A stretch of 64,000 bases of DNA, from the sequence record NC_054931.1. One strand, 5' to 3'. The notes beneath the pieces were generated by a model that had not been told where the DNA came from, ran no database searches, and worked only from the letters and a program-made list of their open reading frames with translations. The DNA is from Escherichia phage T2. This document shows positions 13,006-62,506 of this stretch, piece by piece (within the stretch, counting starts at the first letter, position 1; each line of letters starts with the position of its first letter). Position numbers and translations under genes: made by a program.

Positions 13006-13210
13006 TTTCTTCTCGGTCAAATCGGTGTTTACAATGGCGACATTTATAACGAAGATTACTAGTCTGCCAATGGACCAATTGCACCTGTTCAGTTCCACAT
13101 TCAGGGCAATTAGGAACGTTTTTAGAAGCCCTTTCGCGGCGTTCAACCATGACCATTACAGAATCCCAATTAACAGGAGGGCTAATCATCGCAACCATGA
13201 ATCTTTCCAC
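12992..13210 (-). CDS. Small zinc-ribbon protein
   Basis: 72-aa ORF with CPECG...CRHCKHRF (two CxxC pairs). Confidence 0.4.
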
Positions 13211-13296
13211 GCACTTTCAGATCGTCTTCTTCACCAGCCATAATAATTTTAATTACTGGAATTACTAGAAGCTGCAATATCTTCTAATAGACGCTT

Positions 13297-14277: not shown

Positions 14278-14790
14278 TTACTTAATTAACTGTAAAGCTT
14301 GTTCAAGACGATCCAGGCGATTAACAGATTCTTCCCAAATCCTTTTAGCCTGCTCATATTCTTTCTGCGCTTTATTAGAAATTTCTAGAACTTCTTTATA
14401 AGCTTTTTCTAGTGCAATAACTTCTGGACGAATTTCTACCGGTTCAGGTGAATCGTCAAGACATTCCATTAGTTCCTCAAGGGTAGTTTCTTCTTTAGGA
14501 GTATTCACAATTTCATCACATTTTTGTTGGTAAATTTCTTTATCAGTCGGTGAGTACGCACACTTTACTTCACGAAGACTAACTACAATTTTATATCCTT
14601 CCCAACCGCATATATTCTTAAAAGGATATGTATGAATATTTTCTACTGTTTCCATACAAAGTAATGCGGTCTCTAATTGACGAGTTATAGTGCTAGCAAT
14701 TGAGAAAAATTTATTAATATTCTTTTGGTTAGTTTCTGGTGTAAAAAATTCATAATTCACAAAAAGCTGCTTTATTTTTATCAAGTTCAT
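14278..14790 (-). CDS. Hypothetical protein
   Basis: 170-aa ORF, acidic coiled-coil C-terminus. Confidence 0.55.
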   Translation of the reverse strand: MNLIKIKQLFVNYEFFTPETNQKNINKFFSIASTITRQLETALLCMETVENIHTYPFKNICGWEGYKIVVSLREVKCAYSPTDKEIYQQKCDEIVNTPKEETTLEELMECLDDSPEPVEIRPEVIALEKAYKEVLEISNKAQKEYEQAKRIWEESVNRLDRLEQALQLIK

Positions 14791-15217
14791 ATTCTTTTAT
14801 GATAATCATATCAGAAGCCAAAGGATGAATTTGACGATAATCACCATAACATAATTTAGAAGCTGATTTTAGAATTTGCTTCTTAAAAAGTCTGAAATTA
14901 CTAATCCAACGACGAGTAAAAATATTCTCAGGGTCTTCTTTGACATTAAGATGATAAGAATTAACATCACCGAACCAATTATATCCTACTACATCTTTGG
15001 TTCGTTTAATTTCTTTCCCAAAATTACCAAGAATATCCCGATTAACCAAATATGAAAGAAGACGAGACTCTTTAAAGGTTTTCTTGATAACATCTTTATC
15101 TACACGGCTAGAAATTTTACGAATTTCATGAATAAATTTAGCAGAAGAAACAATACCTGCATCAACACTATTGAGCCATTGATTGATAATAGAAAGAACA
15201 CTATTTTGGCCAAACAT
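14750..15217 (-). CDS. Hypothetical protein
   Basis: 155-aa ORF. Confidence 0.5.
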   Translation of the reverse strand: MFGQNSVLSIINQWLNSVDAGIVSSAKFIHEIRKISSRVDKDVIKKTFKESRLLSYLVNRDILGNFGKEIKRTKDVVGYNWFGDVNSYHLNVKEDPENIFTRRWISNFRLFKKQILKSASKLCYGDYRQIHPLASDMIIIKEYELDKNKAAFCEL

Positions 15218-15333
15218 CGGTATAGCTTTATCATCAATACACTATTGAATGATTTGATATATTCGTTACGAGTCATAATAATCTCCTCAGTAGAAAGTAA
15301 GAACATTATACCACATCCTTGTGGCAAAGTAAA

Positions 15334-16364: not shown

Positions 16365-16562
16365 TTAAGATTTAAGTAAATCAACAATTTTAATTAATTT
16401 TTCACGTTCAGATTTAGCTTTACTACTCAATCCAGATAGTCTAAAGATTTCATCGTCATATTGTTGAATAGAAATATTCAGCTCTTCAATCTGTTTATTA
16501 AAATAATCAATTTGTTCAGAATGTTTTTCGTTACTACGAACTGGTACAGGTTTTGTAGGCAA
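16365..16562 (-). CDS. Hypothetical small coiled-coil protein
   Basis: 65-aa ORF. Confidence 0.4.
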   Translation of the reverse strand: MPTKPVPVRSNEKHSEQIDYFNKQIEELNISIQQYDDEIFRLSGLSSKAKSEREKLIKIVDLLKS

Positions 16563-16649
16563 TTTAGTTGAACTGGATTCATTCGGGCGATAAATTAAAA
16601 TGCAATTTGAACCAATCGGGCATTTAGCACCAGATGAATATTCTAACGT

Positions 16650-17198
16650 TCAAGCTTCTTTTAAAACTTCAAAAGCTAAACAGAGATGATGCCCCATATT
16701 GACATAATCTGTAGAGCGAGCTCTGACGTAATAATCATCTCCACGAGTACTAAATTTAAAGCATTTAAGGTCTTCTGTATTATTAGTTTTAAAAATCATT
16801 TGTTTATCTAGACCTTTAGCTAATCGAGCGCCTAATGCTAATAATCGTCGTTGATTTTCCCACAAATCCGCAATCATTTGATCGAATGATAATTTCGGCA
16901 TTAGTCGGCCATAAAGGTCATATCCTTTATTATAATTACGAAGGATTTCACTCGCGTTAATACGAGACAATGCTCCAATTTTATTAAGGGCTTTCATGAT
17001 GCGATTAGATAAACTCATTCCAGACCCGTTTGTTCGCTGTAAATGTTTTTCTAATCCAAATCCAATATCAACTTTAAATTTATCTAAAATTTCAGCATGA
17101 ACATCTCTGTCAATAACATTCAAATCCAAAGTTGGGTTAAATCTATGAAAAAATTTATCTGGCTCTCCACGACGAAGTACAGTCCATTCATTCATCAT
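16650..17198 (-). CDS. Hypothetical protein
   Basis: 182-aa ORF. Confidence 0.55.
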   Translation of the reverse strand: MMNEWTVLRRGEPDKFFHRFNPTLDLNVIDRDVHAEILDKFKVDIGFGLEKHLQRTNGSGMSLSNRIMKALNKIGALSRINASEILRNYNKGYDLYGRLMPKLSFDQMIADLWENQRRLLALGARLAKGLDKQMIFKTNNTEDLKCFKFSTRGDDYYVRARSTDYVNMGHHLCLAFEVLKEA

Positions 17199-17361
17199 TT
17201 TTTATTAACTAAAGATTTAATTACTGCATTGACATTATTAATTACTACTGACATATTTTCCTCACTCAATTTTACTAATTACGCGGAATAAGATTGAACA
17301 GACTATATAAGTACCACATATAGATTGAACTAATACCATTCCAAAGAACCAAACAATATTA

Positions 17362-20412: not shown

Positions 20413-21426
20413 TCATTTATAATAACTTCGGTGGTTTTCAAGATAAACCTTCTCAAGGAAGTCATCCCAGAAACCCATGTCTACTTTTTGCTGCATACCG
20501 TTCTTAGAAGCTTCAGTAGATGCTGCTTCTACTTGATCGACCACATCTTCCAAAAACTCTTGAACCGTTTTAAATGGATGTTTACCCAACTTCACGTCGA
20601 GAATAAATGGAGCGTCTTGAAGTGGATAAACCAAGTCACCAGTTTTGTAAATTTCCAATAGTTGAAGTCCACCACGACAAGCATGGCTCAGAGCTTTCCA
20701 GTCAATGCCTTCGTTGGCTTCGGCCTTACGGGCACGTTCACCATATTCAGCATCTAATTTGTTCAGTGACTGCTTAAGCTCAATAAGAGAAAGCGTTGTC
20801 TGATATTTACGACCCAATACAGTGTAGAACGTTTGTGGGCCTGTTTTCTCATGATTATGGAACACCCATTCACAGAATTCGTTTTCTGGAAGACGATGCT
20901 TAATATCTTCAACTTTAGTACGACGCTGCTTAATAGAACCATCTTCTTGGTAATCAACCCATTGCTCGGGGATTTGATTAACTACTTTCAATACATCACG
21001 TAATGCAGCCAAACGAGAACCCTTGACACCGTATTTAGAAGCTTGCTTACGGACATATCCTAAATATGATTTCATGTTAGTCGTATAAAAACGAGAACGG
21101 TTGTCTTGAATAAACTTCCACACATCAGGCAAATCAGATTTAACCACTAGTTCAGGTTGAGTGTGAAGCATATCTAACGCTACAGTTTCACCATCTGCTG
21201 CTAATTTAAAGAAATATTTAAGACTGTATAGTTCATGGTCAATATCATCTTTAGTGTTTTTAGATGATGTGTTGTTAGTGTTTTTGCTCATGTGCTCTTT
21301 GACATTTCCGATAAGAATATCGCGAGCAGGAGGAACAAAAATTTCTTTAAAATCTACATCAGATTCTGGGGTAGAAGTTCCATAAAGATGACTACCAAAA
21401 TAGCTTTTCATTACTGTTTTCATCAT
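20413..21426 (-). CDS. Nucleotidyltransferase-fold protein (Pol-beta superfamily signature)
   Basis: 337-aa ORF with N-terminal FGSHLYGTSTPESDVDF (G-S ... D-x-D signature). Confidence 0.5.
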   Translation of the reverse strand: MMKTVMKSYFGSHLYGTSTPESDVDFKEIFVPPARDILIGNVKEHMSKNTNNTSSKNTKDDIDHELYSLKYFFKLAADGETVALDMLHTQPELVVKSDLPDVWKFIQDNRSRFYTTNMKSYLGYVRKQASKYGVKGSRLAALRDVLKVVNQIPEQWVDYQEDGSIKQRRTKVEDIKHRLPENEFCEWVFHNHEKTGPQTFYTVLGRKYQTTLSLIELKQSLNKLDAEYGERARKAEANEGIDWKALSHACRGGLQLLEIYKTGDLVYPLQDAPFILDVKLGKHPFKTVQEFLEDVVDQVEAASTEASKNGMQQKVDMGFWDDFLEKVYLENHRSYYK

Positions 21427-21872
21427 TCAGCCTTATATTCAATAACAGGACATACTTTAGCTTTACGAACTTTTAAAAATTCAACGATAATCGATTTCTT
21501 AGGTTGAATAGGAGGTAAACCTTTATACGCCCTATCAATATTTTCTACGTGTAAAGCATAATCCTTTTTCCATTTATAATCTTTATATTTTTCACGCAAA
21601 TGTGCAGGAATAACAAATGAACCGATAATAAGTAAAACAACCAAAAGCGCAAGTATAAATGCCGATGGAAGAAGAGTCCATAAACTACCGAAAATAAGCC
21701 AACGTTGTAGGCTTTCTGCACAAATAATTGTTAGCCCTACGAGTATAGCACACCCAAAAATAGAAACGAAAAATGTAGGAGGCAATAGACCAAAAATATG
21801 CGCATAGTGTCTTAGGTCGTTGCCATTCATCGTTAAACAGTTTGAATAATTTATAGTGCCAAGAGTTTTCAT
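21423..21872 (-). CDS. Hypothetical integral membrane protein
   Basis: 149-aa ORF with two long hydrophobic segments; start overlaps stop of downstream gene. Confidence 0.5.
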   Translation of the reverse strand: MKTLGTINYSNCLTMNGNDLRHYAHIFGLLPPTFFVSIFGCAILVGLTIICAESLQRWLIFGSLWTLLPSAFILALLVVLLIIGSFVIPAHLREKYKDYKWKKDYALHVENIDRAYKGLPPIQPKKSIIVEFLKVRKAKVCPVIEYKAE

Positions 21873-21884
21873 TAATAATCATAA

Positions 21885-22917
21885 TTATCCTTTCATTGAA
21901 GGCGTAACGGTTGTTAAATACTTAATCATAGCTTCAGCTTCTGATTTTGATAATGAAATTTCTCCATTGTTTTGACGAATAGAAATAAAATCCGGATGAC
22001 GGTCACCACCAGCTTTTAAAACACATATAAGTATCAACTTCGCCTTCAATATTTGAAATGATTGAAGCAGTTCCACATGAATGCGGTTTTTGATAAATCA
22101 ATACAGCTTTTCTTCCACCGTTTGACTGTTCATAGGCTTTTAATACATCAAGCAAATCAGTTCTTTTATCAATAGCTAAAATGTTATTTTCATCTTCAAT
22201 GTTAAATCCTTCGGATACTTCATAAAGCGTTACCCATAAATCACCAATGTCAAAACAGCATTTACTTTTCCACGGCTTTCAAGAGTATGACAAATTTTCT
22301 TGATTTCGTCATAACTCATTTTAATAATATCATCTCCTTGACTAAGGAAGATGTCATTTTTAAATTCAACACGAATTAAACCACTTCCACTTGAAATAAA
22401 CATATTTCCTCACTTTGAAATCATAGTTGGAATAACAGAATCAAGATAAGTCTTTAGTGCAATAGCTTCGTCTTTGTTTAATGTAATGATATGCGATCGA
22501 AAATCGTCAATTTGACGAATAGATACTACATCTCCCTCTTCATAGCATTTTGAAACATTTAAAATAGTTTCATCATTCTGATTACAGGAGTTAGTAATAA
22601 TAGCATTACATTTTTAAACCATTTTAAATTATGTTTTCTTTTAGTAGAATCATAAAAATATTTAATGTTAGTTATAAAATTATCCCAATTATTAATTGAT
22701 AAGCACATTGACTCGCTTTTAATATTAAATCCTGGGCATGAAGAATAAAAATGAATTTTATGCTCATCATTAATGCTTACAATTTTATCAGTGTAAGCAT
22801 ATTCAATTTGGGTTAAACGAACAATTTCACTAGGCGTAATATAACATATCATCTTCTTGCGTCAAACGATACATGTTATTTACTTTTTCGATCGCTAATT
22901 CACCAAAAAGCACACTA
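21885..22917 (-). pseudogene. Disrupted region: two tandem related genes each broken by frameshifts at homopolymer runs
   Basis: Protein-like translation continues across three frames; shared C-terminal segment (DVVSIRQIDDF...KTYLDSVIPTM vs DFISIRQNNGE...IKYLTTVTPSM); the middle segment has no start codon. Confidence 0.45.
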
Positions 22918-23099
22918 TCTTCTAATACTAATCGTTTCATATTGATTCTCTTCGACTCACTCATAATTACATACTCCTCTGAATCATATCAATAATGTTA
23001 TTCACCAAATTATAAGTAAACATTGGGTAATTATATTGAATCATCACATACACAACAAACAAAACTTTCATTCTCTTCTCCTTGGCAGTTGACAAGATT

Positions 23100-23129
23100 A
23101 CTATACCATAACCTTGCCAACTTGTAAAC
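23100..23129 (-). promoter_or_regulatory. T4-type early promoter
   Basis: Forward tgtaaac at 23123-23129, 17-bp spacer, -10 rc TATAGT at 23100-23105. Confidence 0.5.
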
Positions 23130-23294
23130 CATTAAATGACGTTTTCGATAAAATTCTGAAGCTTTGTATGAGCATCAACCATGATTTTCATTTCTTCTTT
23201 GGCGAAAGCTATACCTCTTTCACGAGAAGAACATTCATAGTCAGAAACTGCATTAGCATATTCTTCAATTAGCTTCATTAAAAACATCTGTTTT

Positions 23295-23489
23295 TCAGTT
23301 TTCATTATTCCACCTAATCATTTCAAGATATTGAACTAACTTAGCTTTAGATTTATCCAAATCCCTTTTAGCTGCTTCTATACCGTCGTATGAATATCCT
23401 TCACAATGCTCAACTGCTAATTGATATGAATCTATTTCAATATCACGTGCTAATTTAATGATTTTTTCAAACTGTTCACGTGTTAGCAT
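23295..23489 (-). CDS. Hypothetical protein
   Basis: 64-aa ORF. Confidence 0.4.
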   Translation of the reverse strand: MLTREQFEKIIKLARDIEIDSYQLAVEHCEGYSYDGIEAAKRDLDKSKAKLVQYLEMIRWNNEN

Positions 23490-23491
23490 AA

Positions 23492-23710
23492 TTAAACTCT
23501 CGTATTATGATCGATAATTTCATCAAGAAACATATCTAACGCTTCTAAAGCATTATCAACTTTAGCTTCAAGTTCTTCAATACCTGATAAGGCAAAGTTA
23601 ATGCGTTCCTCATCTGCTTTACGAATTAAAGCTACCAATTCCTTAATTTTATCCGCTTGTTCGATACTAATCATTATTCCACCACATATGAAAGAGAGAA
23701 TATTGCACAC
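23492..23710 (-). CDS. Hypothetical protein
   Basis: 72-aa ORF. Confidence 0.4.
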
Positions 23711-28311: not shown

Positions 28312-28632
28312 TTATTCTTTAAATCTAATCAATTTATTCATAGACTTTGAAACTTCTGCACGAACCTCATGTAGATTTTTGAGCTGTTCAAGACGCTGCG
28401 TATAGTAAGCAATTTCATCTTCTTCGAGACAGTCCTGCGAATCTTCTTTAAGATACCGTGCATAGTCCTGGAAAGCGTTACGGACTACTTCCTGGAAGTC
28501 ATCAAGACTTTGAATTTTCTTAGGAGCAACAGATACACGACGAGGTGCAGTATAATACTCATAACCAAACCCTGCGCTTAATTGATCCATTAGTATTTTT
28601 CCTCTGGTTGGAACACTGCACGACAAGCCCAC
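28312..28632 (-). CDS. Hypothetical protein
   Basis: 106-aa ORF. Confidence 0.45.
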
Positions 28633-28850
28633 ATACTGGCTTCTTTGAGTTTCGTTTTAGCAATAGTTAACTGATCGAGGCTTTCAGCATAATTCTTCGC
28701 GAATTCACAGTCTTCACAATTATCTAGTGCTTCCCAGAATTCATCATATAAAGCATCAAAGATAAGTCCTAAACGAACTTCAGCGTCTTTGATAGCATTC
28801 ACTTTACCGATTTTCTCTTCAGTATGTGGTTTATCCCTTAATATCTTCAA
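28590..28850 (-). CDS. Hypothetical protein
   Basis: 86-aa ORF. Confidence 0.45.
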
Positions 28851-29068
28851 TCATATTTGACTTCCTCACCAGTACATAAATCATATTCAACTAAACGAAT
28901 AGGTTCATGAATGCCATATCCCTGAACAGAAACTTCTGTCGTAGGATAAATTCCATCAATATCACCCATATTCCAGGCTTCATTAAATTGCTGTTCGCCT
29001 GAATTACTAAACCACTCGGCGAAAGCATTTATCACATCTTTAGAACCTTCAATAATTATCTTTGCCAT
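28847..29068 (-). CDS. Hypothetical protein
   Basis: 73-aa ORF; start overlaps the stop of the GrcA-like gene. Confidence 0.45.
   Translation of the reverse strand: MAKIIIEGSKDVINAFAEWFSNSGEQQFNEAWNMGDIDGIYPTTEVSVQGYGIHEPIRLVEYDLCTGEEVKYD

Positions 29069-59365: not shown

Positions 59366-62506
<3,141 letters not shown>

Follow-up and report, generated by a model that had tools for sequence, protein, structure and literature searches.

Escherichia phage T2 carries, on the minus strand between nrdC.11 (a nucleotidyltransferase gene) and rI, a stretch of sequence that looks coding and runs through stop codons, which raises the question what this locus is and whether functional protein can still be expected from it. 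All positions given here refer to the window, i.e. the whole 64,000-nt stretch of T2 DNA (record NC_054931.1) that was analysed. An initial annotation, made from the sequence without database searches, had read positions 21885-22917 as two tandem related genes, each frameshifted at homopolymer runs and located in the nrdC-rI interval. This location is correct, and three-frame translation confirmed that the sequence remains coding-like beyond stops in each of the three minus-strand frames. The upper coordinate fell about 47 nt short, the upstream gene starting at 22964. Very probably, the locus consists of two adjacent T2 pseudogenes, mobD.1 and an ancient tandem paralogue of it, which were broken by small deletions and from which no functional MobD.1-family protein is to be expected.

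A megablast search with positions 21400-23400 (2001 bases) against nucleotide records returned six records of T2 or the near-identical phage SV76 with 100% identity across 2001/2001 bases, as well as about 500 other Tequatrovirus records at 90-98% identity. Based on Pfam tiling and a 13-genome alignment, 22964-22410 (minus strand, 555 nt) was assigned as the T2 orthologue of T4/RB32 mobD.1, which is intact in relatives and measures 558 nt there if counted from the upstream start, or 534 nt if counted from the annotated ATG. Directly downstream, 22403-21885 (minus strand, 519 nt; 522 nt when intact) is the T2 orthologue of RB32ORF097c (hereafter 097c), the tandem paralogue of mobD.1. The intact proteins measure about 177-185 aa (MobD.1) and 173 aa (097c).

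That the two units are related had been proposed from a shared C-terminal segment. When the intact RB32 versions were aligned (BLASTP), they showed 29% identity over 176 columns, i.e. over their full length (E=6e-10), and a profile search identified both Pfam domains, PF24449 (T4_y05I_N) and PF24448 (T4_y05I_C), in each of them, with both proteins falling in PHROG 1502. Therefore, the two units are true tandem paralogues. The homology of the C-terminal segment is real, yet the similarity extends over the full length and the segment represents one of two homologous domains. Judged from the 29% identity and the presence of both copies across Tequatrovirus, the duplication is an old one. The family is tiny: among billions of proteins, clustering at 90% identity gave 52 groups and clustering at 50% gave 29. 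Its annotated members are from phages, mostly T4-like phages of enterobacteria. The intact genes would encode early proteins of about 175 aa, built from an N-domain with two repeats (T4_y05I_N) and a C-domain (T4_y05I_C).

In T2, these domains are present in pieces. Against PF24449 (gathering cut-off 24.9), 132 and 116 bits are obtained with the intact orthologues and 41, 92, 53 and 55 bits with the T2 fragments, which tile profile positions 1-98 in each gene. Against PF24448 (cut-off 27), the intact orthologues score 78 and 82 bits and the C-terminal frames of T2 70 and 56.5 bits. Six pieces thus cover the two Pfam domains in their proper order (E-values between 3e-10 and 3e-26). In mobD.1, a 44-aa piece corresponds to T4_y05I_N positions 1-31 (E=3e-10), a 97-aa piece to positions 30-98 (E=3e-26) and a 67-aa piece to T4_y05I_C positions 9-69 (E=2e-19). 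In 097c, a 57-aa piece matches T4_y05I_N positions 1-54 (E=7e-14), followed by a 91-aa piece for positions 49-98 (E=1e-14) and a 63-aa piece for T4_y05I_C positions 26-69 (E=4e-15), with the first 25 of the 69 profile positions missing. A single uninterrupted two-domain ORF of about 173-185 aa is not found in T2, as two frame changes are needed per gene. Therefore, the T2 loci are pseudogenes of the MobD.1 family and not functional members.

The lesions were mapped by aligning T2 with 12 relatives (13 genomes) over the 1.09-kb interval; sequences are given on the coding strand. Four micro-deletions are private to T2, two per gene. In mobD.1, lesion 1 (22838..22840, minus strand, at 22840/22839) changes TATATTTTACG into TATATTACG, shortening TTTT to TT (-2) at around codon 35 in the N-domain, and lesion 2 (22610..22615, minus strand, at 22611/22610) changes AAAAAATG into AAAAATG (-1) in the linker between the N- and C-domain. 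Compared with the closest relatives SA21RB, Sf23 and Shfl2, lesion 2 is a shortening of A6 to A5; in RB32, T6, ECO4 and RB14 the site is AAAAATT, and against these the lost base looks like T. In 097c, lesion 3 (22253..22254, minus strand, at 22254/22253) changes GCTGTTATTGAC into GCTGTTTTGAC, i.e. GTTATTG into GTTTTG with the loss of a lone A (-1) at codon 51 in the N-domain. Lesion 4 (22022..22026, minus strand, at 22026/22025) changes TATATGTGTGTTTT into TATATGTGTTTT, which can also be written as ATGTGTGT to ATGTGT, reducing (TG)3 to (TG)2 (-2) at around codon 128 in the C-domain.

These events partly agree with what had been read from the T2 sequence itself. Both genes are indeed frameshifted, but a homopolymer is present at only two of the four events (TTTT and A6); short repeats are found at three of the four when (TG)3 is included. 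For the downstream copy, the addition of one T (gctgtttTg) and the removal of one A (ttttaaaAgc, TTTTAAAAGC) had been suggested as repairs. The first site is right (22254), but the lost base is A (GTTATTG) and not T, so lesion 3 is not a homopolymer slip. The second repair restores the frame, but the true event is the loss of TG from (TG)3, 8 nt upstream. The expectation of one continuous protein of about 170 aa was borne out: with the relatives' bases put in, 097c encodes 173 aa, differing by 1-4 residues from the near-identical proteins of SA21RB, Sf23 and RB32. Repaired in the same way, mobD.1 encodes 185 aa and differs from its counterparts in these three phages by a handful of residues. 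In the T2 lineage, each gene would thus have acquired two small deletions, three of the four at short repeats, most likely by replication slippage.

The sole T2-private substitution in the 1.09-kb alignment is located at 22964 (minus strand), where the upstream start codon of mobD.1 has changed from GTG to ATG, an odd change in an otherwise dead gene.

Short repeats at three of the four sites might suggest that the frameshifts are sequencing or assembly errors at low-complexity positions and that the true T2 genes are intact, and ECO4, a 'partial genome' record, likewise has indels in both genes. However, the 2-kb region is 100% identical in the six T2/SV76 GenBank records, which come from different laboratories, and in three Logan assemblies, each from its own SRA run. 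Moreover, the runs involved are just 2-6 nt, well under typical error-prone lengths, and one lesion lies outside any repeat. T2 stocks are also stable, since no more than 12 variants genome-wide separate a stock of 1972 from the RefSeq sequence (PMC8573959). The four lesions are not sequencing errors, and the probability of such an artefact is negligible.

As for the consequences, T2 mobD.1 has retained its native start and Shine-Dalgarno sequence, and reading from this start yields 44 aa before a TAG at 22832-22830. The native start of 097c yields 57 aa before a TAA at 22232-22230. In three-frame translation, stops come within 3 (mobD.1) and 7 (097c) codons of the first lesion of each gene. 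Translation from the native starts would therefore end after 44 and 57 residues, inside the first repeat, and the downstream pieces appear to have no credible starts of their own. Because of these early stops and the lack of credible internal starts, no functional MobD.1-family protein is expected in T2, although low-level read-through or re-initiation may occur on the broken genes.

Alternatively, the fragments could work as separate small proteins, such as a C-domain made on its own from the downstream gene. Proteins of about 70-87 aa that consist of the C-domain alone do exist as real families (PHROG 7763 and 10804; 15 or so clusters), and five small CDS are called here by the pipelines used to annotate T2; record PV958097 lists hypothetical proteins of 44 and 97 aa in mobD.1 and of 57, 50 and 50 aa in 097c. 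For the 97-aa ORF, there is an ATG that overlaps the end of the 44-aa ORF, and the C-terminal piece of 097c has possible TTG/GTG starts at 22037 and 22076. However, three-frame translation revealed no ATG, GTG or TTG in the C-domain frame of mobD.1 until 4 codons from its end, leaving this domain without a usable start codon, and in PV958097 the corresponding part (22410-22558) carries no feature at all. The C-terminal piece of 097c is itself incomplete at its beginning, and all breakpoints except lesion 2 fall inside predicted repeats instead of between domains. In addition, the split is found in none of the aligned relatives, and those sampled among more than 430 records at >=90% identity have single ORFs, against the possibility, raised in the initial annotation, that the segments are independent small ORFs. 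There is accordingly only a slight chance that the fragments are working proteins.

The net change is -3 in each gene (-2 and -1 in mobD.1, -1 and -2 in 097c), so the termini of each gene share one frame and only the middle is shifted. A net -3 in both genes has a chance of about 1 in 4. It could be a hint of past compensation, against which the stops in the shifted segments argue. The shared frame of the N- and C-termini would also suit programmed ribosomal frameshifting or hopping, by which full-length proteins would be obtained from the T2 sequence as it is, and T4-type phages do use translational bypassing, as in gene 60 (bioRxiv 10.1101/2022.08.31.505936). But the T2 shifts are absent in 12/12 aligned relatives, where the genes are in one frame save for the own indels of ECO4 and RB14, and there is therefore no conserved recoding signal. 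Two separate recoding events would be required per gene, and inspection by eye did not show a slippery motif adjacent to the stops. Such recoding is extremely improbable.

Another explanation would be that the sites act as reversible on/off switches through repeat slippage, as recently proposed for T2. According to Gomez, Barrick and Waters (2025 preprint), T2 has 168 homopolymers of >=6 nt with elevated indel rates, and the A6 to A5 change of lesion 2 fits such a mechanism. However, each gene would need two independent reversions, as a single slip cannot restore the ORF. Furthermore, the runs now present are A5, TT and (TG)2, all shorter than the 6 nt required in that preprint, next to one site without a repeat, and only the ancestral A6 would qualify. 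Nor do the assemblies vary: nine independent ones are identical and all in the 'off' state. Switching is thus very unlikely, and decay into pseudogenes is preferred over each of these alternatives.

Outside T2, the pair is generally intact. An annotated intact pair is found in RB32, 303Ecol101PP, T6, Sf23, ESh28, SA21RB and Shfl2, with mobD.1 measuring 534-543 nt and 097c 522 nt. In a tblastn survey of the phage GenBank collection, 454 records matched 097c, 433 of them at >=90% identity, with a single uninterrupted match in 58 of the 60 rows sampled; mobD.1 matched 725 records, and nearly all sampled rows were intact. A scan of IMG/VR gave four loci, too few for a population survey. T4 MobD.1 (Y05I, 'uncharacterized 21.1 kDa protein in mobD-rI intergenic region') shares about 97% nucleotide identity over the gene with the T2 copy, as well as the two domains and the neighbours (mobD.2 upstream, the nrdC.11 side downstream), but is intact at 546 nt where the T2 copy is broken by -2 and -1. 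Likewise, RB32ORF097c, annotated as 'similar to mobD.1' and present in RB32, RB14, RB51, T6, Shfl2 and most Tequatrovirus phages, is broken in T2 by -1 and -2. In T4, the HNH homing-endonuclease gene mobD takes the place of ORF097c and ORF096c.

Some relatives carry defects of their own. Independently of the T2 lesions, ECO4 has a -1 and a +1 indel, one per gene, and RB14 has a -1 in mobD.1. Among variants from metagenomes and the BASEL collection, protein P0021 is a chimera of a MobD.1 N-part and a 097c C-domain, apparently derived from recombination between the tandem paralogues. In P0051 (BASEL phage TadeuszReichstein), a large deletion has joined the 097c C-domain to the N-terminal part of a different ORF of the mobD region. 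A metagenomic 097c (P0048) has a different frameshift. Viable genome-reduced T4 mutants lacking the nrdC.11-mobD.3 fragment have been described (PMC9825161). As the genes are intact in most relatives, the fragment is deletable in T4 and independent frameshifts occur, both genes appear to be maintained in nature yet dispensable in the laboratory. The lesions would then have persisted and become fixed in the sequenced T2 lineage because the genes are dispensable for laboratory growth.

What the intact proteins do can be approached from their predicted structure. Pfam labels the family 'putative transcription factor', and no functional study was found in the literature on 'mobD.1' and 'y05I'. An AlphaFold2 model of MobD.1 (37-sequence alignment, pLDDT 85) consists of three sheet-plus-helix units, i.e. 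the repeated beta-beta-beta-beta-alpha architecture of the PUR/Whirly type. In PUR-alpha, Whirly and MRP1-MRP2, such repeats bind single-stranded DNA or RNA; the resemblance of MobD.1 is that of a predicted model, with 4-11% sequence identity to the PUR/Whirly-like structural matches. The intact proteins matched no Pfam PUR or Whirly profile at E<=1, a sequence-profile search of the PDB gave no homologue (best E=0.28, not significant), and a BFVD search returned family members only. The model suggests that the intact protein has a PUR/Whirly-like fold and may hence bind single-stranded nucleic acid.

A putative T4-type early promoter (10/12 consensus matches) is located at 23100..23129 on the minus strand, upstream of mobD.2, and the SA21RB annotation has an early promoter at the equivalent position. 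It probably drives a mobD.2 - mobD.1 - 097c - 096c - nrdC.11 unit, from which we infer that the intact MobD.1-family proteins are made early in infection. In the same region, a mobD.4-like small ORF at 23586-23590 (minus strand) lacks 21 nt in T2 (18 + 3, in frame) compared with SA21RB, KNP5 and LF73P3; the CDS measures 183 nt in T2 and 204 nt in RB32.

The two pseudogenes do not stand on their own. T2 window positions 1-47500 were compared with SA21RB, KNP5 and LF73P3, and positions 10500-32500 also with T6. The next gene downstream of 097c, the orthologue of RB32ORF096c, a predicted membrane protein (21423..21882, minus strand), has a T2-private -2 deletion (GCCATTCC to GCCTCC) at 21781/21780, by which the native 34-codon N-terminus no longer shares a frame with the rest of the protein; T2 records give a 149-aa CDS instead, taken from an out-of-frame ATG at 21872. 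In T2, 096c, 097c and mobD.1 are thus broken in a row. Other isolated T2 deletions of 1-2 nt in accessory ORFs are found at ~11908, 13169-13295, 14281-15306, 16368-17254, 17409, 29959/30204/30299 and 44515, affecting gp49.2-like, nrdC.2, nrdC.4, nrdC.6, nrdC.7, a 195-aa protein (SA21RB_124) and gp5.1. None of these ORFs is broken in SA21RB, KNP5 or LF73P3, nor in T6 for the part compared. The orthologue of acb2/vs.4, which codes for an anti-CBASS sponge (~28593-28884, minus strand), has a 2-nt deletion at ~28835, around codon 18, with a stop immediately after and no early Met in the remaining frame; the SA21RB protein matches Pfam Acb2_Tad1_hairpin (E=2e-18). Within 10.5-32.5 kb of the window, at least nine genes are frameshifted in T2 (eight by an automated test plus 097c), compared with one in T6 and none in the three natural isolates. 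The locus is one case of a widespread frameshift decay of T2 accessory genes.

The frameshifted gene of T6 is a 181-aa ORF (L022 17439-17982; T6 AP018814.1 ~59938-60481) at a position consistent with vs.1; T2 and the three natural isolates have this ORF in intact form.

With 4-5 private deletions against 1 private substitution, the locus might seem to have an excess of indels over substitutions. Over the larger genome stretch, this ratio is not anomalous: in ~40 kb compared with three relatives, 694 substitutions and 15-19 indels are private to T2, against about 400 and 7-22 for the relatives. The T2 excess is one of placement, as the indels fall within ORFs. This speaks for selection that was relaxed or altered, not for a mutator or mutagen. 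Of the 15 frameshift-size indels private to T2, nine are 2-nt deletions, and short di- or mononucleotide repeats host six of these nine. Scars of nuclease escape, either from homing endonucleases leaving 2-nt overhangs or from CRISPR, were also considered, as deletions of 1-2 nt have been seen upon CRISPR escape in T4 (PMC9825161). The 15 contexts share no motif, and slippage is a simpler explanation. Given the normal indel/substitution ratio and repeat contexts without a motif, slippage combined with relaxed, or possibly positive, selection is favoured over mutagen or nuclease scars.

With regard to positive selection, the mutation of acb2 in T2, escape from Panoptes and the general sensitivity of T2 to defence systems have been noted in the Panoptes paper (PMC12657218). 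The acb2/vs.4 escape mutants of T4 under Panoptes likewise carry small indels that inactivate a dispensable early gene. In contrast to acb2, no selective agent is known for mobD.1 and 097c, the loss of which may be neutral drift. By analogy, the deletion load of T2 might reflect selection for losing proteins that set off host defence, in the way that Acb2 sets off Panoptes. The MobD.1 paralogues would then have been sensed by a defence system of the ancestral T2 host, and the two hits per gene would represent separate removal of N- and C-domain activities. This scenario is conceivable but rather unlikely.

That phage genes which are dispensable decay by frameshift is no surprise in itself, and the present case is ordinary gene decay; mobD.1 and 097c are a lineage-specific pseudogene pair in a known but uncharacterised family, and as such offer little that is new. 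The practical value lies in a corrected T2 annotation and in the picture of many T2 accessory genes lost through micro-deletion. At present, the loci are shown as five unrelated small CDS, and users therefore cannot see which proteins are missing from T2. Naming in this region is a more general matter: many RefSeq phage records list mobD.1 under the wrong name 'molybdopterin-guanine dinucleotide biosynthesis protein MobD', and in AP018813 and AP018814 (T2 and T6) the locus has been given spurious labels, among them 'integrase and recombinase', 'prohead core scaffold protein' and 'XRE family transcriptional regulator'.

Research on anti-phage defence uses T2 as a standard test phage, and it has been described as much more sensitive than T4 to defence systems (PMC12657218). 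Based on the present comparison, T2 would be without both MobD.1-family proteins, Acb2, several proteins of the nrdC region and an intact form of the adjacent membrane protein. Once recognised as pseudogenes, these loci would provide natural knock-outs to set against T4, T6 and wild relatives, as well as a testable list of candidate genes behind the distinctive defence profile of T2.
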